Assembly (NCBI GenBank): GCA_963706005.1
Contig: CAVPLL010000010.1
Coordinates: 162,459 to 226,458 of the forward strand
DNA from: an uncultured Actinomycetes bacterium
GTDB taxonomy: Bacteria; Actinomycetota; UBA4738; HRBIN12
Reading direction: 5' to 3'
Length of the DNA: 64,000 nt
Position 1 is the first letter of the stretch; every line of letters starts with the position of its first letter. Position numbers and translations under genes: made by a program. The notes under the pieces are model-generated. The model made no database searches. It was not told where the DNA came from and saw nothing but the letters and a program-made list of their open reading frames with translations. Of the stretch, positions 48,938 to 58,070 are shown in pieces.

Positions 48938-50008
48938 TCAGACGCCCTCGGCGGCCTGCTCCAGCCACCGCTCGAACCGTTCGTCGGCCATCGAGCGCTC
49001 GAGCCGGTCGAAGTGGCGGTCGGCGTACGCGACGTAGTCGATGTCCAGGGTCGACAGCGCCTGCTGGATCACGCCCCACATCGCTTCGCGGAAGTCGGAC
49101 ATGATCCGCATCAGCTGCAGGCGCGCGCGATGCCCGTCGGTCACCTCGCCGAACGTGAGCCGGAGCAGCGACTCCTGCGACCGCTCGGACAGGCCGTTGT
49201 TGATCGACAGGTTGCCGAGATCGAAGAAGGGATCGCCCATCCCGGAGTACTCGTAGTCGACGAGCCAGAAGCCGTCTGCTCCACGGAGGAAGTTGTCGGC
49301 GAGCAGGTCGTTGTGGCAGGGCCGCGCCGACACCGGGGCCACCGCGAGGGCCTCCTCGATGCGTTCGGCGCGATCGTGCGCCCGTTCGTACGCGGCGGGG
49401 ATCGCGACGCCCCGTTCCTCCGATACGCGCCGGTACTCCTCCACGATCCGGAACGCGTCGAACGATGCAGGGAGCCTCGGGCCGGCGTGGATCGTCGAGA
49501 CGACGCGTACGACGTCGGCCAGGACCGACTCCTGCTCCATATCGCCCTCGGCGAGCGGCTCCCCTGGGACCCATCGTGTGATGAGGCATCCGTGCTCGGG
49601 GAGATGGGCGACGACCTCGGGTCCGACCCCGGCGGCCGCGGCCGCCAGGGCCGCCTCGAACTCGGCCACGCGGTCGATCCCGAGCAGCGCGGTGTCCTTC
49701 TCGGACAGCCGGAGGAAGAACACCCCGGCGCCGATCTCGACGCGGAAGTTGCGGTTGGTCCGCCCCGCCTCGATCGGGGTGATCCTCGGATCGTGGCCCC
49801 GCCACTCGGGCACGGCCGCGATCACCGCATCGAGTTCGCGATCGAGGCTCACGGCGCGAGACCCTAGACGGGATGATCGTTTCCGGTCAAGGTTGAGCGG
49901 TTCCGAACGACTACGGCCGGGTCGGCTGACCGTTCCTGCGCGGTCACCCGTCCGACGGGTTGACACGTCGTTCGATGTCCGTACACTGGCCGAGCCATGT
50001 TCCACCAC
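48938..50008 (-). CDS. choline/ethanolamine kinase family phosphotransferase
   Basis: Brenner motif HNDLLADNF. Choline-kinase motif LVDYEYSGMGDPFFDLGN. The track GTG at 50008 overlaps the ilv leader, so the true start may be the GTG at 49852. Confidence 0.65.
   Translation of the reverse strand: MVEHGSASVRTSNDVSTRRTGDRAGTVSRPGRSRSEPLNLDRKRSSRLGSRAVSLDRELDAVIAAVPEWRGHDPRITPIEAGRTNRNFRVEIGAGVFFLRLSEKDTALLGIDRVAEFEAALAAAAAGVGPEVVAHLPEHGCLITRWVPGEPLAEGDMEQESVLADVVRVVSTIHAGPRLPASFDAFRIVEEYRRVSEERGVAIPAAYERAHDRAERIEEALAVAPVSARPCHNDLLADNFLRGADGFWLVDYEYSGMGDPFFDLGNLSINNGLSERSQESLLRLTFGEVTDGHRARLQLMRIMSDFREAMWGVIQQALSTLDIDYVAYADRHFDRLERSMADERFERWLEQAAEGV
49960..49987 (+). promoter_or_regulatory. sigma-70-like promoter (TTGACA-16-TACACT) for the ilv leader/operon
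   Basis: -35 ttgaca 49960-65. 16-nt spacer. -10 tacact 49982-87. Predicted TSS is approximately 3-6 nt before the leader ATG, giving a leaderless transcript. Confidence 0.4.
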
Positions 50009-50050
50009 CAGGAGAAGACCGGACCGCGGGCCCTCGTACTTATCGCGTAG
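49997..50050 (+). CDS. ilv-leu operon leader peptide MFHHQEKTGPRALVLIA
   Basis: 17-codon ORF ending in Leu-Val-Leu-Ile just before the stop. Located between the promoter and the attenuator hairpin upstream of ilvBNC. Confidence 0.5.
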   Translation: MFHHQEKTGPRALVLIA

Positions 50051-50090
50051 GCGCGGCCGGGCCGAGACAGGCCCGGGACCCGCGCCAGAT

Positions 50091-50116
50091 GCCCCTCGCC
50101 CAGCGAGGGGCTTTTT
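50091..50116 (+). terminator. attenuator-type intrinsic terminator (gcccctcgc-cca-gcgaggggc + TTTTTC)
   Basis: 9-bp GC stem, 3-nt loop, then T5. Sits 40 nt after the leader peptide stop. Alternative pairing is possible with the upstream GC-rich segment 50051-50090. Confidence 0.55.
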
Positions 50117-50201
50117 CTACCCCGGTCGGGACCACGGGGAGCGAGCGGGACCCAGGGCGCCGAGACGGGCCACCGGACCAGGAGCTAGCAGACAGGAGGA
50201 G

Positions 50202-50525
50202 ATGGAGATGCGATACGAGTTCGAGCGGGGCGGCAGGACGGTCGCGAGCGTGCTGTGGGAGGGCCCGGGTCAGGTGACGATGGACGTCGCCGACGCCGCC
50301 GATCGCCCGCAGTTCGACCGGTTCTTCGGCGAGGAGGTCGCGTACCTGGACGCCGGGTTCGACTTCGGCGGCGGGATGGACGAGGCCGGGATGACCACGC
50401 GGCGGCGCGACTGGACCCCGTGGGAGTTCGAGCGCGCCACCCGCAACCTGGCCCACCGGCTGGGCTGCACGGTCCGCCGCGTCGAGACCGGACCGGTCGA
50501 GGAGCGCGAGGCCGTCGCCCCATGA
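50202..50525 (+). CDS. 107-aa acidic protein of unknown function, translationally coupled to ilvB
   Basis: AGGAGGAG RBS then ATGGAGATG. Stop overlaps the ilvB ATG (ATGA). In frame with track ORF 49293..50525. Confidence 0.5.
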
Positions 50526-52270
50526 AGGTCACCGGCGCGCAGGCGCTGTTCCGTTCGCTCGAGGGCGAGGACGTCGACATCGCGTTCGGCATCCCGGGCG
50601 GGGCGATCCTGCCCGCGTACGACCCTTTGATCGACTCCAAGGTCCGCCACGTCCTGTGCCGGCACGAGCAGGGGGCGGGCCACGCCGCCGAGGGCTACGC
50701 GTGGGCGACCGGGAAGGTCGGGGTCGCGATCGCCACCTCCGGCCCGGGCGGCTGCAACCTCGTGACGGCGCTCGCGGACGCAAAGATGGACTCCGTCCCG
50801 ATGGTCGCGATCACCGGGCAGGTCCCGACACCGGTCGTCGGGAACGACGCGTTCCAGGAGGCCGACATCACCGGCATCACGATGCCGATCACCAAGCACA
50901 ACTTCCTGGTCAAGGACGCCAACGAGCTCGCGATGACGATCCGCGAGGCGTTCCACATCGCCCGGACCGGTCGGCCCGGCCCCGTGCTGGTGGACATCCC
51001 CAAGGACGTCCAGCTGCAGGAGATCAGCTGGGACTGGCCGGAGTCGGTCGACCTCCCCGGCTACCGCCCGACGACCAAGGGCAACCTGAAGCAGGTCCGC
51101 AGCGCCGCGAAGATGATCATGGCGTCCGAGCGCCCCGTCCTGTACGTCGGCGGCGGCGTGATCAAGGCCGAGGCGCACAAGGAGCTACTGAAGCTCGCGA
51201 ACGACGGGCGGCTCCCCGTCACGACCACGCTGATGGCCCGGGGAGCGTTCCCCGACACGCACGAGCTCGCGCTCGGGATGCCGGGCATGCACGGCGGCTA
51301 CACGGCCGTCACCGCGATGCAGAAGGCGGACCTGTTGGTCGCGCTCGGGGCGCGGTTCGACGACCGGGTGACCGGACAGCTGTCCTCGTTCGCGAAGGGC
51401 GCGAAGATCGTCCACGTCGACGTCGACCCGGCCGAGATCGGGAAGAACCGCGTCGCCGATGTGCCGATCGTCGGCGACTGCAAGGACGTCATCGCCAAGC
51501 TCCACACCGAGCTCCGGCGCCTCCAGGACGAGTCCGGCGGGGTCCCGGACCGGACGGCCTGGCTCGCTCAGCTCGACGATTGGAAGCGGACGTACCCCTA
51601 CACGTACGACCAACCGGCGGACGGGCCCCTGAAGCCCCAGTTCTGCATCGAGCGTCTGTACGAGCACACGAAGGGCGACGCGATCGTCGTCGCCGGTGTC
51701 GGCCAGCACCAGATGTGGGCGTCGCAGTTCTGGCGATTCACCGAGCCGCGGACGTGGGTGAACTCCGGGGGGCTCGGCACGATGGGGTTCGCCGTGCCGG
51801 CGGCACTCGGCGCCAAGGCCGGCCGACCCGACCGCCGGGTGGTCGCCATCGACGGGGATGGGTGCTTCCAGATGACCAGCCAGGAGCTCGCGACCTCGAC
51901 GGCCGAGGGCATCCCCTTCGTCACGGCGATCATCAACAACGCGCACCTGGGGATGGTCCGCCAGTGGCAGGAGCTGTTCTACGAGGAGCGGTACTCGCAG
52001 GTCTACCTGTCCTACGACGTGCCGGACTACGTCAAGCTCGCCGAGGCGTACGGCTGCGTGGGTCTGCGAGCTGAGCACCCCGACGAGGTGGATGCCGTGA
52101 TCGACAAGGCGCTCTCGGTCACCGACCGGAGCGTCGTGATCGACTTCCGCGTGGACTCGAAGGAGATGTGCTTCCCGATGGTCCCCGCGGGCTCGAGCAA
52201 CGACGACATCATCGTCGGCCCCGAGGGCCTGCGGCCGACGAACGATCCCGCCGAGGCACCGGTCGCATGA
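50522..52270 (+). CDS. ilvB: acetolactate synthase large subunit
   Basis: 582 aa. ThDP enzyme motifs. [14 protein letters not shown]-terminus. [15 protein letters not shown] ThDP-binding region. Confidence 0.9.
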
Positions 52271-52821
52271 GCCTGCATACGATCTCGGTGCTGGTCGAGG
52301 ACAAGCCGGGCGTCCTCACGCGCGTCGCCGGGCTGTTCGCGGCGCGGGGGTTCAACATCGACTCGCTGGCGGTCGGCCCAACCGACGACGCCGGTCTGTC
52401 GCGGATGACGATCGTGGTCCAGGTCGACACGAAGCCGCTCGAGCAGGTCACGAAGCAGCTCAACAAGCTGATCAACGTGATCAAGATCCTGGAGCACGAG
52501 GCGGGCGACGCGGTCGAGCGCGAGCTGATGCTGGTGAAGGTCAAGGGCGAGGGCGAGGCCCGCGCGCGGATCCTGGAGATCTGCGACGTGTTCCGGGTCC
52601 GGGTGCTCGATGTGACCCACCGGACGATCACGATCGAGGGCACCGGCACGCCCGACAAGCTCGAGGCCCTCCTCGAGCTGCTGCGCGACTTCGGCATCGT
52701 GGAGCTCTCGCGCACCGGGCGGATCGCGCTTGCCCGCGGCGATCGGGGGATCAAGGAGCGGACTGCGCGTCTGCGGTCGGTCGTCGGCAACGGACAGGAG
52801 TGGACCGGCGGCGGCGTCTGA
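52267..52821 (+). CDS. ilvN: acetolactate synthase small (regulatory) subunit
   Basis: [37 protein letters not shown] (ACT domain). ATGA overlap with ilvB. Confidence 0.85.
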
Positions 52822-52860: not shown

Positions 52861-53886
52861 ATGGCGACGATCTACCACGACGCGGATGCCGATCCGTCGG
52901 TCCTTGCCGGTCAACGGATCGCGGTCCTGGGGTTCGGGAGCCAGGGCCACGCGCACGCGCAGAACCTGAAGGATTCGGGCCACGACGTCCGCGTGGGGCT
53001 GCGCGAGGGCTCGGGGTCGTGGTCCAAGGCGGAGGAGGCCGGGCTGCCCGTGAGGCCGACGGGGGAGGCCGTGGCGGAGGCGGACGTGGTCATGGTCGTG
53101 CTCCCCGATACGGCGCACGGCGCCGTCTACGCCTCGGCCATCGCGCCGAACCTGCAGGCGGGCAACATGCTGATGTTCGCGCACGGGTTCTCGGTGCACT
53201 TCGGGACCGTGCGGCCGCCCGCCGATGTCGACGTGACGATGATCGCGCCGAAGGGCCCGGGGCACCTGGTGCGGCGCACCTTCCAGGAGGGGATCGGGAC
53301 GCCGGCGCTGGTCGCGGTGCAACAGGACCCGACTGGCACGGCGTTGGCGCGCGCGCTCGCGTACGGGGCCGGGATCGGCGCCGCTCGTGCCGGGATCATC
53401 GAGACGACGTTCAAGGAGGAGACCGAGACCGATCTGTTCGGCGAGCAGTCGGTGCTGTGCGGAGGGATCTCGACGCTCGTCGAGGCCGGGTTCGATACCC
53501 TCGTGCAGGCCGGATACCAGCCGGAGATCGCGTACTTCGAGTGCCTGCACGAACTCAAGCTGATCGTCGACCTGATCTACGAGGGCGGCCTGTCGTGGAT
53601 GCGCTACTCGATCTCCGACACGGCCGAGTGGGGCGACTACCGGAGCGGTCCGAGGATCGTGGACGAAGGCGTGCGCGAGCGCATGCGTCAGGTCCTGTCC
53701 GAGATCCAGGACGGCGCGTTCGCGAAGGAGTGGCTGGGGGAGGCCGAGGCCGGCTTCCCCCACTTCCTCGCGCTCCGTCGCGAGGCCCGTGGCTCGCAGC
53801 TCGAGTCCGTGGGCCGCGAGCTGCGTCCGATGATGCCGTGGCTGCACTCCGACGAGAAGGTGGTCCCCGATGACGAACGACCCTGA
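52861..53886 (+). CDS. ilvC: ketol-acid reductoisomerase
   Basis: 341 aa. [21 protein letters not shown] Rossmann motif. Class I KARI. Confidence 0.9.
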
Positions 53887-55417
53887 CGTAGTTCGGATCT
53901 TCGACACCACGCTCCGCGACGGCGAACAGGCCCCGGGGATCGCGCTCACCCGGGCCGAGAAGGTCGAGATCGCGGAGCAGCTGGCCCGCCTCGGCGTCGA
54001 CGTGATCGAGGCGGGCTTCCCCGTCTCGAGCGAGGGGGAGTTCGAGGCCGTGAGCGAGATCGCCTCGAGCGTCCGCGGCCCGGTGATCGCGGCGCTCGCC
54101 CGCGTCGTGCCCGGCGACATCACCCGCGCGGCCGAGGCCCTCGCCGGTGCCGAACGGTGGCGGATCCACACGTTCATCTCGACGAGCGACATCCACATGA
54201 CGGACATGCTCCGGATGAGCCAGGCGCAGGTGCTCGACGCGATCCGCGAGGGCGTCAAGCTTGCCGTCGGTTACACCGAAGACGTCGAGTTCAGCGCGCA
54301 GGACGCGACGCGGACCGAGCTGGACTTCCTCCTCGAGTGCTTCCGGGTCGCGGTGGACGCCGGGGCGACGACGATCAACGTCCCCGACACGGTCGGCTAC
54401 GCGATGCCGCACGAGTTCGGCGAGTTGGTCCGGACGGTGCGCGAGGCCGTCCCGGAGCATGTGGTGATCTCGACGCACTGCCACAACGATCTCGGACTGG
54501 CCGTGGCCAACTCGCTCGCCGGCATCGTGAACGGCGCCCGGCAGGTCGAGGTGGCCGTGAACGGGATCGGTGAACGCGCGGGCAACTGTTCGCTCGAGGA
54601 GGTCGCCATGGTCGTGCGCACGCGCCGGGAGGCGCTCGGCGTGACGCACCGGCTGAACCTGAAGGAGATCACGCGCACCTCGCGCCTGGTCAGCATGACC
54701 ACCGGTTACGGCGTGCAGCCGAACAAGGCGGTCGTCGGGTCATCCGCGTTCGCGCACGAGAGCGGGATCCACCAGCACGGGGTGCTCGCCAATCGGGCGA
54801 CGTACGAGATCATGGACCCGCTCGAGATCGGCCTCGAGGGCAACCAGCTCGTCCTCGGCAAGCATTCCGGCCGTCACGCGTTCGCGGACGCGCTCGACAA
54901 GATCGGGATCGAGCTCGACGAGGAGCACCTCAACCGTGCGTTCGCGCGCTTCAAGGACCTCGCCGACCGGAAGATCCAGCTCACCGACCAGGACCTCGCG
55001 GCCATCGTCTCCGAGGAGCTCGGCGCGGCCGCCGAGGACGTGTTCGTGCTCGAGGCGCTCCAGGTGGGCGGGGGGACCGCGCTCTCCCCGACGGCGAGCG
55101 TCCGGCTCCGCAGGGGCGACGAGATGGTCGAGGAGTCAGCGATGGGCGACGGCATGATCGACGCCGCGATGGGTGCGATCCAGCGAGCCTCGGGGGTCGA
55201 GGGGCGCCTCGTCTCGTTCAACGTCTCGGCCGTCACCGGCGGGACCGATGCGCTCGGCGACGTCGTCGTGCAGCTCGATGCGCTCGGACGGCGTGTCACG
55301 GGTCGTGGCGTGGCGACCGACGTGGTCGAGGCGAGCGCCCGCGCCTACCTGGCCGCGGTCAACCGCGCGCTGCTGATGTCGAACCGCGACGACGACGCGG
55401 AGAAGCACACCCCGTGA
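53870..55417 (+). CDS. leuA: 2-isopropylmalate synthase
   Basis: [15 protein letters not shown]... [16 protein letters not shown] motifs. 515 aa with C-terminal LeuA dimer/regulatory domain. 17-nt overlap with ilvC. Confidence 0.85.
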
Positions 55418-56472
55418 CCGGCCGGACGCACTCGATCGGCGTGATCCGGGGCGACGGGACGGGTCCCGAGGTCGTCGGCGAGGCCCTCAAGGTGCTCGAG
55501 GCCGTCCGCGATGGATTCGACGTCTCGACGGTCGGGTTCGACCTCGGCGCCGACCGGTACCTGCGCACGGGCGAGGTGCTCCCCGACGACGAGCTCGAAC
55601 GACTGGGCACGATGGACGCCGTCCTGCTCGGGGCCGTCGGCGACCCGCGGGTACGGCCCGGCATCCTCGAGCGCGACCTGTTGCTGCGCATCCGGTTCGA
55701 GCTCGACCAGTACGTCAACCTCCGTCCGATCGTGCGGTACCCGGGGGTGGAGACCCTCGTACCCTCCCACTCGGAGGACGACGTCAACATGGTGGTCGTC
55801 CGCGAGAACTCCGAGGGCTTGTACAGCGGGTCGGGCGGCTTCCACCGCAAGGGCACGCCGCACGAGGTGGCCGTGCAGGAGTCGATCAACACGCGCCACG
55901 GGGTGGAGCGGATCGTCCGGTACGCGTTCGAGCTCGCGATGCGGCCTGACCGGCGGCGCAAGGTGACGCTCGTCCACAAGACCAACGTGCTCACGTTCGC
56001 GGGAGACCTGTATCAGCGCATCGTGGACGAGGTCGGGAGCGGGTACCCCGAGGTCGAGCGCGACTACGTCCACGTGGACGCCGCGTGCATCTACCTGTTG
56101 GATCAGCCGTCCCGCTTCGACGTGATCGTCACCGACAACATGTTCGGGGACATCATCACGGACCTCGGTGCGATGATCCAAGGTGGGATGGGCATCGCGG
56201 CGGGAGGCAACATCAATCCCTCCGGGATGAGCATGTTCGAACCGATCGGTGGCACGGCCCCCGACCACACCGGGCGGGGGACCATCAACCCGCTCGCGGC
56301 GATCGGCGCGCTGCAGATGCTGCTCGCGCAGCTCGGCGAGGAGGAGGCCGCGGCGCGTGTGACCGCGGGCATCCGCTTCGCGTGCTCGAAGCTGCATTCG
56401 ATGCGCGCGGGGCAGATGGGGTACTCGACGCCGGAGGTCGGTGACCTCGTGGCCGAGGGGGCGATCCCGTGA
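55414..56472 (+). CDS. leuB: 3-isopropylmalate dehydrogenase
   Basis: 352 aa. Isocitrate/IPMDH family (IGVIRGDGTGPEV, NMFGDIITD). ATGA overlap with leuA. Confidence 0.9.
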   Translation: MTGRTHSIGVIRGDGTGPEVVGEALKVLEAVRDGFDVSTVGFDLGADRYLRTGEVLPDDELERLGTMDAVLLGAVGDPRVRPGILERDLLLRIRFELDQYVNLRPIVRYPGVETLVPSHSEDDVNMVVVRENSEGLYSGSGGFHRKGTPHEVAVQESINTRHGVERIVRYAFELAMRPDRRRKVTLVHKTNVLTFAGDLYQRIVDEVGSGYPEVERDYVHVDAACIYLLDQPSRFDVIVTDNMFGDIITDLGAMIQGGMGIAAGGNINPSGMSMFEPIGGTAPDHTGRGTINPLAAIGALQMLLAQLGEEEAAARVTAGIRFACSKLHSMRAGQMGYSTPEVGDLVAEGAIP

Positions 56473-58070
56473 GCCCGTTGCAGGTGGAGCTGTACGACAC
56501 TACCCTGCGCGACGGCGCGCAGGGGACCGGCTTCTCGTACTCGATCGACGACCGGCTGCGGATCCTGCACAAGCTCGATCAGCTGGGCGTCTCGTTCATC
56601 GAGGGTGGCTGGCCCGGCGCGAACCCGCGCGAGACCGAGTTCTTCCGGCTCGCGACGGGGGAGACCCTCAAGCACGCGACGCTCACGGCGTTCGGGATGA
56701 CGCGCAAGGCGGGGGAGGCGCCGGACCGCAGCGGCGTCCTCCGTGACCTCCTCGACGCGGGGACCGAGGTCGTGTGCCTGGTGGGCAAGGCCTGGGACCT
56801 CCACGTCACCGAGGCCCTCCGCACCGACCTGGACGAGGGCGCGGCCATGGTCCGCGACTCGATCGCGTTCCTGCGGCAGCAGGGACGTCGCGTCTTCTTC
56901 GACGCCGAGCACTTCTTCGACGGCTACCGGAGCGACCGGGCGTTCGCGCTGCGGGTGCTCGCGTCGGCCGAGGAAGCCGGCGCCGAGCGCCTGGTCCTGT
57001 GCGACACCAACGGCGGGATGCTCCCGCAGGAGGTGGCTCGCATCGTCGCCGAGGTGCGTGAGGTTGTTCGGACGCCGCTCGGCATCCACGTGCACAACGA
57101 CGCCGGCTGCGCCGTCGCGAACTCGCTCATCGCGGTCGAGCACGGCGCCTTCCAGGTGCAGGGCGTCGTGAACGGCTACGGCGAGCGGACCGGCAACGCG
57201 GACCTGATCCCGATCGCCGCCAACCTGATGCTGAAGATGGGCGCCGAGTGCCTGCCCGACGGCTCGCTCGAGCGGCTCACCGAGGTCGCGCACTACGTCG
57301 CCGAGGTCGCGAACGTGGCGCCGGACTCGCGCCAGCCGTACGCGGGCCGGTTCGCGTTCACGCACAAGGCCGGGTTGCATGCGAGCGGCATCGAACGCGT
57401 CTCGCGCGCCTACGAGCACGTGGCGCCCGAGACCGTGGGCAACCACCGCGGGGTCGTGGCGAGCGATCTCGGGGGGGCGGCGACGATCCGGATGAAGGCG
57501 CGGGAATTCGACCTCGAGCTGGGGTCCGAGGCCGTCGGCCGGCTGCTCGCGGACCTCAAGGAGCGCGAGGCCCGCGGGTACACCTTCGAGGTGGCGGACG
57601 CGTCCCTGGAGCTGCTGATGCGACGCGCCGACGGGTGGCGGCAACCGTTCTTCGAGATCGACAGCTACCGCGTCCACGTCGAGGAGCGGGTGGGCGACGA
57701 TGAGCCACCGCTCGCCGAGGCGACCGTCAAGGTCGTGACCAAAGGGACCCGGCACATCGAGAGCGCCGAGGGCCACGGCCCGGTCGGAGCGCTGGACAAC
57801 GCGCTCCGCAAGGCCCTGGTGAACGACTACCCGGAACTCGGGAACATTTCGCTCGAGGACTTCCGGGTCCGCGTCCTCGAGCAGACCTCCGGGACCGGTG
57901 CGGTGGTGCGCGTGTTGATCGACACCTCGAACGGCCAGCGGGAATGGACCACCGTCGGCGTCTCCGAGAACATCATCGAGGCGTCTTGGGAGGCGCTCGT
58001 GGACGGGTACCTCTACGGGCTGCTCCATCCGCGAGACGGCGAGGCGCCCTCGGACCCCGCGGTACCCTGA
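56469..58070 (+). CDS. cimA: (R)-citramalate synthase
   Basis: 533 aa. LeuA/NifV fold with the IEGGWPGANP motif characteristic of CimA (TIGR00977-type). ATGA overlap with leuB. Confidence 0.7.
   Translation: MSPLQVELYDTTLRDGAQGTGFSYSIDDRLRILHKLDQLGVSFIEGGWPGANPRETEFFRLATGETLKHATLTAFGMTRKAGEAPDRSGVLRDLLDAGTEVVCLVGKAWDLHVTEALRTDLDEGAAMVRDSIAFLRQQGRRVFFDAEHFFDGYRSDRAFALRVLASAEEAGAERLVLCDTNGGMLPQEVARIVAEVREVVRTPLGIHVHNDAGCAVANSLIAVEHGAFQVQGVVNGYGERTGNADLIPIAANLMLKMGAECLPDGSLERLTEVAHYVAEVANVAPDSRQPYAGRFAFTHKAGLHASGIERVSRAYEHVAPETVGNHRGVVASDLGGAATIRMKAREFDLELGSEAVGRLLADLKEREARGYTFEVADASLELLMRRADGWRQPFFEIDSYRVHVEERVGDDEPPLAEATVKVVTKGTRHIESAEGHGPVGALDNALRKALVNDYPELGNISLEDFRVRVLEQTSGTGAVVRVLIDTSNGQREWTTVGVSENIIEASWEALVDGYLYGLLHPRDGEAPSDPAVP

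Follow-up and report, generated by a model that had tools for sequence, protein, structure and literature searches.

A probable ribosome-mediated transcription attenuator with two adjacent hairpins upstream of an ilv-leu operon in uncultured Actinomycetota

The leader of the orf105-ilvBNC-leuA-leuB-cimA operon in the window (the whole 64-kb stretch of DNA analysed) is probably a ribosome-mediated transcription attenuator, as judged from sequence conservation and RNA folding. The original prediction of a leader peptide with branched-chain amino acid (BCAA) codons and an intrinsic terminator before an ilv-leu operon was supported by codon conservation, covarying hairpins, and the identities of the genes. 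The element was found at no fewer than 179 loci (166 distinct sequences), all in uncultured soil and sediment Actinomycetota; the subsets used were 70 aligned homologues, 161 parsed sequences, and 159 and 169 loci for the promoter and ORF statistics. A pattern scan of metagenomes also gave 10 matches that were not followed by orf105 or ilvB, and 9 of these were chance matches in low-GC DNA. We found this widespread cis-regulatory element to be unannotated and absent from Rfam. It can be searched for by the signature CTC GTA CTT ATY NNN TAG GCGCGG, followed by a hairpin and then by a terminator. The leader consisted of the following features.

49960..49965, + strand: -35 hexamer TTGACA (promoter scan)
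49982..49987, + strand: -10 hexamer TACACT (promoter scan), with a 16-nt spacer to the -35
49988..49996, + strand: 9-nt stretch from the -10 to the ATG, GGCCGAGCC, family consensus GnnnnGACC
49997..50050, + strand: leader ORF of 17 codons plus TAG (stop at 50048-50050), read directly as MFHHQEKTGPRALVLIA
50033..50044, + strand: putative regulatory codons CTC GTA CTT ATC (Leu-Val-Leu-Ile), near-invariant in 70 aligned homologues
50050..50086, + strand: hairpin H1, between the stop codon and the terminator (folding, -30.9 kcal/mol)
50087..50090, + strand: linker AGAU from H1 to the terminator, purine-rich, with G-A conserved
50091..50116, + strand: intrinsic terminator T, with a 9-bp stem, CCA loop, and U5 (terminator scan, -18.2 kcal/mol)
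50117..50123, + strand: CUACCCC right after the U tract, conserved as YACCCC

Promoter, leader reading frame, and operon

A TTGACA-16-TACACT promoter followed within about 10 nt by an ATG had been proposed, and both were located as described, with the ATG 9 nt past the -10. This was the only promoter-like site found, against 0.0 expected from shuffles. Among related loci with enough upstream DNA, TTGAC[A] was kept in 159 of 169; the -10 of relatives read TA[CG]ACT or xACACT, and the spacer measured 16-17 nt. The distance from the -10 to the ATG was exactly 9 nt in 129 of 159 loci, and in these 9-nt loci position 7 of the stretch was A (112/129) or G (14/129), with CC at positions 8-9. Since the ATG was fixed 9 nt after the -10 and the consensus was GnnnnGACC, initiation at typical spacing from the -10 would yield a transcript beginning with (A/G)CC-AUG. 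The predicted transcription start is 49994, and 49997 is less likely. The 5’ UTR is thus predicted to be 0-3 nt long, more likely 3 nt, and a Shine-Dalgarno site was excluded for the leader ORF because a 5’ UTR of 0 or 3 nt is too short to hold one. The earlier description of the mRNA as leaderless was not supported in its strict sense: the ORF lacks a Shine-Dalgarno site and its AUG is predicted to lie 0-3 nt from the 5’ end, but a 0-nt start is the less likely case given the fixed 9-nt gap and the purine at position 7. The predicted 3-nt 5’ UTR would count as leaderless under the rule of 5 nt or less applied to M. tuberculosis.

The leader ORF reads ATG TTC CAC CAC CAG GAG AAG ACC GGA CCG CGG GCC CTC GTA CTT ATC GCG TAG, so that the 17 codons ending in L-V-L-I-A were present as first described. 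Across the 70 aligned homologues, the LVLI codons were invariant at the nucleotide level except for the wobble position of Ile and for two CTG and two CTC variants, and the changes at the Ile and Leu codons were exclusively synonymous. The peptide L-V-L-I, often as V/A/T-L-V-L-I, was invariant in both the 70 aligned and the 166 distinct sequences, and the family signature was CTC GTA CTT ATY, one free codon, and TAG. The residue before the stop was fully variable (A, R, P, T, V, G, H, S, or I). UAG was the stop codon in 70/70 loci; the genome mostly uses TGA. Based on codon use in the genes of the window, GTA accounted for 0.9% of Val, CTT for 2.7% of Leu, and ATT for 0.4% of Ile codons, each below 3% of its own synonymous set. 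The peptide body ranged from 15 to 30 codons, the ATG stood in the LVLI frame with zero in-frame stops in 155 of 159 loci, and indels within the ORF body were always multiples of three. Codon-periodic conservation and the frame kept in these 155 loci together argue strongly that the leader ORF is read as codons and translated. The nucleotide invariance of GTA and CTT could, however, also stem from a motif at the RNA or DNA level, which counts against a purely codon-based reading.

The genes downstream of the leader were arranged as follows.

50208..50525, + strand: orf105, conserved hypothetical protein of 105 aa, first gene of the operon (alternative start ATG at 50202)
50522..52270, + strand: ilvB, acetolactate synthase large subunit (TPP_enzyme N, M, and C domains)
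52267..52821, + strand: ilvN, acetolactate synthase small subunit (ATGA overlap with ilvB)
52861..53886, + strand: ilvC, ketol-acid reductoisomerase
53870..55417, + strand: leuA, 2-isopropylmalate synthase (NF002086, 715.8 bits against a cut-off of 532)
55414..56472, + strand: leuB, 3-isopropylmalate dehydrogenase (Iso_dh domain)
56469..58070, + strand: cimA, citramalate synthase (TIGR00977, 654.9 bits against a cut-off of 450)

The leader was thus confirmed to precede a BCAA operon containing ilvB, ilvN, ilvC, leuA, leuB, and cimA, but the first gene of this operon was orf105 and not ilvB as had been supposed. The TGA stop of orf105 overlapped the ATG of ilvB as ATGA. All 474 homologues of orf105 were unnamed and began at MRYEF; no relatives were found in Pfam, NCBIfam, or PDB, and no fold or family could be assigned. 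The protein was acidic, without a recognisable RNA-binding fold, and its gene was found with the leader at about 90% of loci. Where orf105 was missing (L038, L067, L069, and L071), the leader directly preceded ilvB, and the leader therefore belongs to ilvB rather than to orf105. On the same grounds, orf105 was rejected as a necessary RNA-binding regulator. As a conserved protein of unassigned fold that is translationally coupled to acetolactate synthase, it is worth characterising. The promoter scan revealed no further promoter-like site between T and the operon genes, and the distance from T to the next gene fell to about 35 nt in relatives; the operon would therefore depend on read-through of T.

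Two hairpins and the search for an overlapping antiterminator

The 9-bp GC hairpin followed by TTTTTC, 40 nt past the ORF, was borne out. The stem of T (50091-50111) consisted of GCCCCTCGC / CCA / GCGAGGGGC, with 8 G-C among its 9 bp, and began 40 nt past the stop codon; TTTTTC followed directly at 50112-50117. T held the sole run of at least five T, or of at least five A, in the window, and one terminator-like site was found against 0.3 expected from shuffles. Compensatory changes were present in four stem pairs of T, and the hairpin was kept in relatives in a conserved arrangement. The leader RNA folded at -64.1 kcal/mol, with z = -3.1 compared to shuffles.

H1, the stronger of the two hairpins, was omitted from the original prediction. 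Its outer stem GGCGCGG/CCGCGCC was invariant and its inner stem CCGGGCC/GGCCCGG covaried. The outer stem showed zero variation in 70 aligned and 161 parsed sequences, without a single GC-to-CG swap, and such absolute invariance demands more than a role in stability only. Of 161 sequences, 160 had the G of TAG as the first base of H1. The linker between H1 and T was 3-4 nt long in about 93% of the 161 sequences and shortened to 0-1 nt in the most divergent members. For H1 and T combined, 99.1% of cells were paired and 7 pairs had changed on both sides, a result matched by 0 of 500 shuffles; on this comparative evidence, H1 and T are genuine RNA structures. By its position H1 corresponds to an antiterminator, and it may be a pause hairpin too. 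Counting from the base of H1, 115 of 161 sequences carried a pause-like pattern, G(-10)...Y(-1)G(+1), after 10-13 nt; 29% lacked it, and the sequences are not mutually independent.

When the ribosome footprint was modelled with L13, V14, L15, or I16 in the A site, H1 stayed intact or at worst opened its outermost pairs, and moving the ribosome to the stop codon cost H1 its outer stem. T itself was retained in the minimum-energy fold of the 70 homologues at every ribosome position. Constrained folding with ribosome footprints on six codons, using full-length and truncated transcripts, gave no antiterminator overlapping T in the window or in the 70 homologues, and no conserved alternative partner for the 5’ arm of T was found in these homologues. 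In transcripts cut before the 3’ arm of T, pairing of the 5’ arm was 0.46-0.55 in stalled states and 0.43-0.61 in other states. As a positive control, the identical procedure recovered the 3-nt overlapping antiterminator of the Corynebacterium ilvB leader. The layout had been called textbook ribosome-mediated attenuation, and this was not borne out: H1 merely abuts T and shares no bases with it in the window and the 70 homologues. The folding comparison of terminator and antiterminator alternatives suggested at the time thus gave no pairing that shares bases with T, and by the standard set there the classical mechanism is unsupported.

An all-versus-all scan of alignment columns for conserved alternative helices returned solely UCCUCG:CGAGGG and the trivial CUUA:UAGG. 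The conserved CUACCCC could also pair with the GGGG of the T 3’ arm (91% of cells, zero covariation). Among 67 read-through leaders, 40 had a minimum-energy fold in which CUACCCC was paired to the Shine-Dalgarno region of the following gene. None of UCCUCG:CGAGGG, CUUA:UAGG, and GGGG:CCCC showed covariation, and for logical and kinetic reasons we rejected all three as antiterminators. A helix between the purine-rich 5’ portion of the ORF and the 5’ arm of T was discarded as well, being unconserved and absent from the clade of the window.

These observations bear on whether textbook attenuation operates through an overlooked base-sharing antiterminator, non-canonical or long-range, which we regard as unlikely. 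Candidate helices for it would join UCCUCG to CGAGGG in the T 3’ arm, or the purine-rich 5’ portion of the ORF to the T 5’ arm. UCCUCG, formed by the Val/Leu-Val codons, was able to pair with CGAGGG in 97% of cells, but a ribosome stalled on LVLI would hide it, giving the wrong logic, and the helix lacks covariation and spans 70 nt compared to the 3-nt loop of T. Similarly, a 5’ CGAGGAC can pair with GUCCUCG in some clades, yet the 5’ CGAGG segment is missing from the window’s own clade. The M. tuberculosis relative is described with mutually exclusive hairpins, which favours a base-sharing switch; against it, pairing of the T 5’ arm was no higher in the stalled state, and the Corynebacterium control showed a clear overlapping helix.

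Proposed mechanism and alternative readings

In the mechanism we propose, RNA synthesis would start from the TTGACA/TACACT promoter and deliver an AUG 0-3 nt from the 5’ end, without a Shine-Dalgarno site. The ribosome would then make a short peptide, of which the sole conserved part is Leu-Val-Leu-Ile, any residue, and UAG, with the rarest synonymous codons (GUA, CUU, and AUU) specifying Val, the second Leu, and often Ile. When amino acids are plentiful, the ribosome would reach UAG, and its footprint would cover and unwind GGCGCGG, the 5’ strand of H1. With H1 unwound, the RNA upstream of T would be single-stranded, T would form, and transcription would stop after about 123 nt. Under a shortage of charged Leu-, Val-, or Ile-tRNA, the ribosome would instead stall on the LVLI codons just before H1, leaving H1 folded and allowing the polymerase to pass T into the operon.

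The part of this scheme that we are least sure of is how folded H1 would prevent termination at T. Since none of the modelled states contained an antiterminator overlapping T, the read-through step rests on a steric argument. The basal pairs of T would have to close far inside the RNA exit channel of the polymerase, and the rigid all-GC end of H1, 0-4 nt from the base of T, would be unable to enter the channel behind T. Within the polymerase, H1 and T would then exclude each other, though compatible in free RNA. We prefer, as a tentative reading, attenuation by steric exclusion between adjacent hairpins, in which H1 would antiterminate without a shared nucleotide unless a ribosome at the stop codon melts it. 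H1 may also double as a pause signal, holding the polymerase near C50097 until the ribosome arrives. We know of no experimental precedent for steric exclusion of a terminator by an adjacent hairpin. If true, the switching of a terminator by a neighbouring hairpin without sequence overlap may represent a design principle, which would matter for synthetic designs and for the prediction of attenuators, in that current searches seek overlapping alternative helices.

A distinctly improbable alternative to ribosome-mediated control is that H1 binds a trans-acting factor which decides termination, with a minor role at most for the ORF. Such a factor might be a protein that binds RNA (possibly orf105), an RNA that modifies RNA polymerase, like put of phage HK022, or a small ligand. 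Sequence-specific recognition would fit an invariant outer stem of H1 beside a covarying inner stem, and the uncharacterised orf105 accompanies the leader in about 90% of loci; however, the leader persists in the four loci without orf105, and orf105 is acidic with no recognisable RNA-binding fold. H1 is a plain hairpin without aptamer-like complexity. A cmscan of 49000-51000 gave no relevant match to Rfam leader, T-box, or riboswitch families even at E = 10, the three hits elsewhere in that segment being chance matches. Such a factor would also leave the codon-periodic conservation and the fixed rare codons unexplained.

It is very improbable that the ORF is untranslated, that CTCGTACTTAT...TAGGCGCGG is an RNA or DNA motif, and that the unit as a whole is either a gene for a small RNA or a partial terminator working constitutively. 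Exactly three variable nucleotides separate the invariant blocks, only synonymous changes occur at the Ile position, the indels of the ORF body are all multiples of three, 155 loci are free of in-frame stops, and the four fixed codons specify the three amino acids made by the operon. The points in favour of such a motif are the invariance of the block even at synonymous sites and an ATG that is probably preceded by 3 nt instead of lying at the very 5’ end, when strict leaderless initiation probably requires a 5’-terminal AUG. We also give very little credence to a TnaC-like nascent-peptide sensor, in which LVLI-X together with free Leu, Val, or Ile would block release factor 1 at UAG and hold the ribosome on H1, favouring termination: the use of UAG in 70/70 loci despite a TGA-preferring genome and the fixed LVLI-X-stop spacing would suit it, but the residue beside the stop is entirely free, which is not so in known arrest peptides, selection acts on particular rare codons beyond the amino acids alone, and the G of UAG is also required as the first pair of H1.

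Comparison with known attenuators

The proposed ribosome-mediated attenuator resembles the enterobacterial trp, leu, and ilv attenuators in having a leader peptide with end-product codons, a pause hairpin released by the ribosome (a possible role of H1 here), and an intrinsic terminator before the first structural gene. Rare codons would serve as sensors in both, as CUA does in the enterobacterial leu leader. The enterobacterial attenuators have a Shine-Dalgarno-led ORF and four overlapping segments (1:2, 2:3, and 3:4), whereas the present element is Shine-Dalgarno-less, has two non-overlapping hairpins, and matched no Rfam leader family. The mycobacterial leaderless polycysteine short ORF attenuators (bioRxiv 10.1101/834739) are similar to what is predicted here in that a leaderless sensory short ORF is the first cistron of an Actinomycetota biosynthetic operon and control is exerted by ribosome stalling on cognate codons; they differ from this element, which carries a canonical intrinsic terminator. 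In the account given in PMC1262725, changing the presumed regulatory codons of the Streptomyces coelicolor ilvB leader had no effect, which speaks against the attenuator reading.

The element is akin to the Corynebacterium and M. tuberculosis ilvB leaders. According to Morbach 2000, as cited in PMC4046766, a Corynebacterium ilvB leader peptide is produced in the absence of a ribosome-binding site. The ORF likewise opens the RNA motif, with no ribosome-binding site, in the Corynebacterium ilvB-II motif and the C. glutamicum ilvB leader (PMC10272879; Morbach 2000). The peptide there has 15-17 codons and the same rare codons, CUU and GUA; the terminator core GCCCUCG:CGAGGGC is like GCCCCUCGC:GCGAGGGGC here; and a GGCGC:GCGCC antiterminator helix, which a ribosome at the stop would disrupt, resembles the H1 outer stem GGCGCGG:CCGCGCC. 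The Corynebacterium ORF, however, lies inside hairpin P1, and the 3’ strand of its antiterminator overlaps the 5’ arm of the terminator by 3 nt, whereas the ORF here ends before H1, and H1 stops 4 nt before T. The antiterminator of the ilvB-II motif forms with the lower stem of P2, which is not the arrangement found here. No P1-like helix was found in the clade of the window, and the sequence strings of the element were not found in the published ilvB-II and ilvB-OMG alignments.

The M. tuberculosis ilvB1NC attenuator (PMC13236596, 2026), likened here by its published description, comes from the same phylum and precedes the same first pathway gene. Both have an upstream ORF with four BCAA codons near the stop, including GUA (LVVI there, LVLI here), and the U tract of the terminator runs to about +126 in M. 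tuberculosis and to about +123 here, relative to the predicted start. They differ in the stop codon (UGA there, always UAG here), in that the M. tuberculosis upstream ORF is classed as ‘isolated’ rather than leaderless, and in that a mutually exclusive pair of antiterminator and terminator is described for it, whereas H1 and T have no base in common. GUA is among the regulatory codons of the M. tuberculosis ilvB1 leader, and mutation of LVVI to AAAA abolishes induction (PMC13236596). Together, our results extend the ilvB leader peptides with GUA and CUU codons of Corynebacterium and M. tuberculosis to a deep uncultured lineage, and support a phylum-wide theme.

Leader layout and operon

Direct reading and scanning of the region upstream of the ilv genes identified the following elements.

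49960, +, -35 hexamer TTGACA (direct reading of 49600-50500 and consensus scan)
ending at 49987, +, -10 hexamer TACACT, 16-nt spacer from TTGACA (consensus scan)
49997, +, ATG of the leader ORF encoding MFHHQEKTGPRALVLIA, stop codon TAG at 50048-50050 (direct reading)
50050-50086, +, H1, a 37-nt hairpin of -30.9 kcal/mol (RNA folding)
50091-50111, +, T, the intrinsic terminator stem of 9 bp (8 G-C), loop CCA, followed by TTTTTC (reading and consensus scan)
50208-50525, +, orf105, encoding a 105-aa protein, with a strong GGAGGAG ribosome-binding site and a stop codon overlapping the ilvB ATG
following orf105, +, ilvB, ilvN (ATG 52267), ilvC, leuA, leuB and cimA, in this order
48941-49852, -, divergent kinase of the GntI/thiamine-kinase type (profile match)

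The promoter, ATG-initiated ORF and 9-bp GC hairpin with TTTTTC of the original prediction were all found in place, whereas H1 had been overlooked. Shuffles of the region gave 0.0 promoter-like and 0.3 terminator-like sites by chance. The T-run of the terminator was the sole run of at least five T or at least five A across the 64-kb window (70.5% G+C). The promoter, ORF and terminator features are not chance. The leader RNA had a folding energy of -64.1 kcal/mol (z = -3.1), and the first base of H1 was the G of the TAG stop codon.

The distance from the -10 hexamer to the ATG was exactly 9 nt in 129 of 159 related loci, with the consensus GnnnnGACC and A at position 7 in 112 of these 129. Applying the usual spacing between -10 hexamer and start site to this conserved stretch, we inferred an RNA 5' end of (A/G)CC-AUG. 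With either 5' end there was no room for a Shine-Dalgarno site before the leader ATG. By the rule of a 5' UTR of ≤5 nt, as used for M. tuberculosis, the mRNA with this predicted end counts as leaderless, as had been proposed, although a 5' end exactly at the ATG was not established.

Downstream of T the operon was tightly packed, with several gene junctions overlapping as ATGA or GTGA. The first gene was orf105, not ilvB as had been assumed, and the two were translationally coupled by an ATGA overlap. The orf105 protein had 474 homologues, all unnamed, sharing an invariant 12-residue motif, and no relative in Pfam, NCBIfam or PDB by sequence or fold; its AlphaFold2 model (pLDDT 72.6) had the strand/helix order b-b-b-a-b-b-a-b. 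Within 53870-58070 (+), the operon encoded a 2-isopropylmalate synthase (leuA) as well as a citramalate synthase (cimA). The presence of cimA beside leuA implies that isoleucine would be made via citramalate, with this route subject to the Leu/Val/Ile attenuator as well. On the other strand, the kinase started about 110 nt from the -35 hexamer; the models nearest to it were thiamine kinase and GntI guanitoxin kinase, the latter at 259 bits, short of its 357-bit cut-off.

A consensus scan of the region found no further promoter-like site, and the spacer from T to the next gene was as short as ~35 nt in relatives. Operon expression is therefore predicted from sequence to be one that must depend on read-through of T.

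Conservation across related loci

An IlvB scan yielded 80 loci from uncultured Actinomycetota genomes (69-97% identity). The leader element was present in all 70 loci that had an orf105 homologue and sufficient upstream sequence, and in five loci without a detectable orf105 match; in four of these it lay immediately before ilvB, and the fifth (L080) carried a divergent orf105. Overall, orf105 was found in ~90% of related loci, and the few without it had the leader directly before ilvB. About 100 further loci were added by a metagenome pattern scan, bringing the family to 179 loci and 166 distinct sequences.

H1 began at the G of TAG in 160 of 161 sequences, and the GCGCGG after TAG was invariant. 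In ~93% of sequences 3-4 nt separated H1 from T; the most divergent members had a linker of 0-1 nt. The H1 loop and inner stem, the T upper stem and the distance from T to the next gene varied. In H1 and T, 99.1% of cells were paired and 7 pairs had changes on both sides, values reached by 0 of 500 shuffles; slid registers dropped to 35-56% paired. The terminator hairpin, whose absence from relatives had been named as evidence against an attenuator, was present there with covariation.

Several loci departed from this arrangement. Terminator tails in L008, L111, L071, L117 and L155 had interrupted U tracts (e.g. GGGGCUUUCGUUAUCC), and these members may be natural variants that terminate more weakly. 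L042, L065 and related loci, from several clades, had a third hairpin, in which CGAGGAC near the ORF 5' end paired with GUCCUCG in the Val-Leu-Val codons; its 7-11 bp surrounded the ORF body, and the window's own clade lacked it. The metagenomic contig L083 (3700-6500) had a genuine leader (…HLFTLVLIT*) complete with H1 and terminator, but what came next was neither orf105 nor ilvB; small ORFs and the ATP-synthase genes atpB, atpE and atpF lay there instead.

Ribosome positions and the search for an antiterminator

In a footprint model, a ribosome with Leu13, Val14, Leu15 or Ile16 in the A site left H1 intact or frayed its outermost pairs, and a ribosome at the stop codon held the GGCGCGG strand inside. 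As modelled, the position of H1 relative to the ribosome is exactly the antiterminator geometry of the classical model. Yet not one nucleotide was common to H1 and T, and T was kept in the minimum-energy fold at every ribosome position in 70 homologues. The "textbook" layout was thus not established: in the window and the 70 homologues, no antiterminator overlapping T was found at any modelled ribosome position. The T 5' arm had no consistent partner in transcripts cut before the T 3' arm. The sole conserved alternative helix, UCCUCG:CGAGGG, would be covered by the stalled ribosome and showed no covariation.

A conventional antiterminator might have been overlooked. As a positive control, the same folding method was applied to a Corynebacterium leader (MTIIRLVVVTARRLP); it recovered a GGCGC:GCGCC helix with a 3-nt terminator overlap, which formed with the ribosome on Val8 and was missing with the ribosome at the stop codon. 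The method is therefore sound. The H1 outer stem resembles this helix, shifted 4 nt off T. Alternatively, a trans-acting factor might recognise the invariant H1 stem; orf105 is disfavoured for this role, since the leader persists without it.

We hypothesize instead that H1 acts by steric exclusion and pausing. The H1-folded state would be the read-through state, because any ribosome-based logic of a biosynthetic operon requires this. H1 would prevent completion of the T bottom pairs within the RNA exit channel, which would explain why the linker is kept strictly to 0-4 nt, why the helix end is all-GC and so should resist fraying, and why H1 is placed right at the stop codon. A further role of H1 might be that of a pause hairpin. 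In 115 of 161 sequences, the stretch 10-13 nt past the H1 base showed a G(-10)/Y(-1)G(+1) pattern (C50097/G50098 in the window).

The H1 outer stem GGCGCGG:CCGCGCC (50050-50056/50080-50086) was a near-copy of the T upper stem CCUCGCC:GGCGAGG (50094-50100/50102-50108), and CCUCG of the Leu-Val codons mimicked the T 5' arm. Strand exchange among these copies was feasible on paper but yielded no sensible regulatory logic. Directly 3' of the U tract, CUACCCC (50117-50123, +; family-wide YACCCC) was able to pair with GGGG of the T 3' arm. When 67 read-through leaders were folded, its partner in the minimum-energy structure was the Shine-Dalgarno region of the following gene in 40. It could add a second layer of control, at translation, or belong to the terminator as a downstream element.

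Evidence for codon reading, and known attenuators

The sequence CTC GTA CTT ATY, one free triplet and TAG occurred in 70 of 70 loci, after a peptide body of 15-30 codons that was in frame without a stop in 155 of 159. Conservation was codon-periodic: exactly three free bases separated the invariant blocks, within which all changes were synonymous (ATC/ATT, two CTG, two CTC). The codons fixed in this Leu-Val-Leu-Ile run were those that the window's genes use least: GTA (5/559 Val codons), CTT (15/563 Leu) and ATT (1/263 Ile). This is evidence for a leader ORF read as codons, sensing charged tRNA. A TnaC-like peptide sensor would account for the invariant UAG, but the residue beside the stop is free and selection acts on particular codons. 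Codon periodicity contradicts a reading of the ORF as an RNA or DNA motif that is not translated.

With codon-level conservation, H1/T covariation and the ilv-leu operon downstream, the element is very probably a branched-chain amino acid leader-peptide attenuator, as originally predicted. Terminator-linked leader peptides before ilvB were predicted in 2005 in Corynebacterium, Mycobacterium and Streptomyces, in a report calling the mode of regulation unclear (PMC1262725). The C. glutamicum peptide was demonstrated (Morbach 2000, as cited in PMC4046766), and the ilvB-II motif was defined in 2023 (PMC10272879). In M. tuberculosis, ilvB leader attenuation was shown to operate in 2026, with GUA as a named regulatory codon of the ilvB1 leader and induction abolished by an LVVI to AAAA mutation (PMC13236596). 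Leaderless sensory short ORFs are known in mycobacteria (bioRxiv 10.1101/834739).

Antiterminator-terminator overlap, the one structural criterion tested, characterizes the classical family, whereas the element here lacks it. Because of this, and because no Rfam model matched the element and neither the ilvB-II nor the ilvB-OMG published alignment contained it, we file it on present sequence grounds as a variant of a known attenuator kind, set apart by non-overlapping hairpins. The regulator is of the expected type, yet its family is large and uncatalogued, and its hairpins have an unusual, directly testable arrangement. In function it appears similar to the Corynebacterium and M. tuberculosis ilvB leaders and the mycobacterial leaderless short ORFs, and Corynebacterium ilvB leaders use the same CUU and GUA codons.
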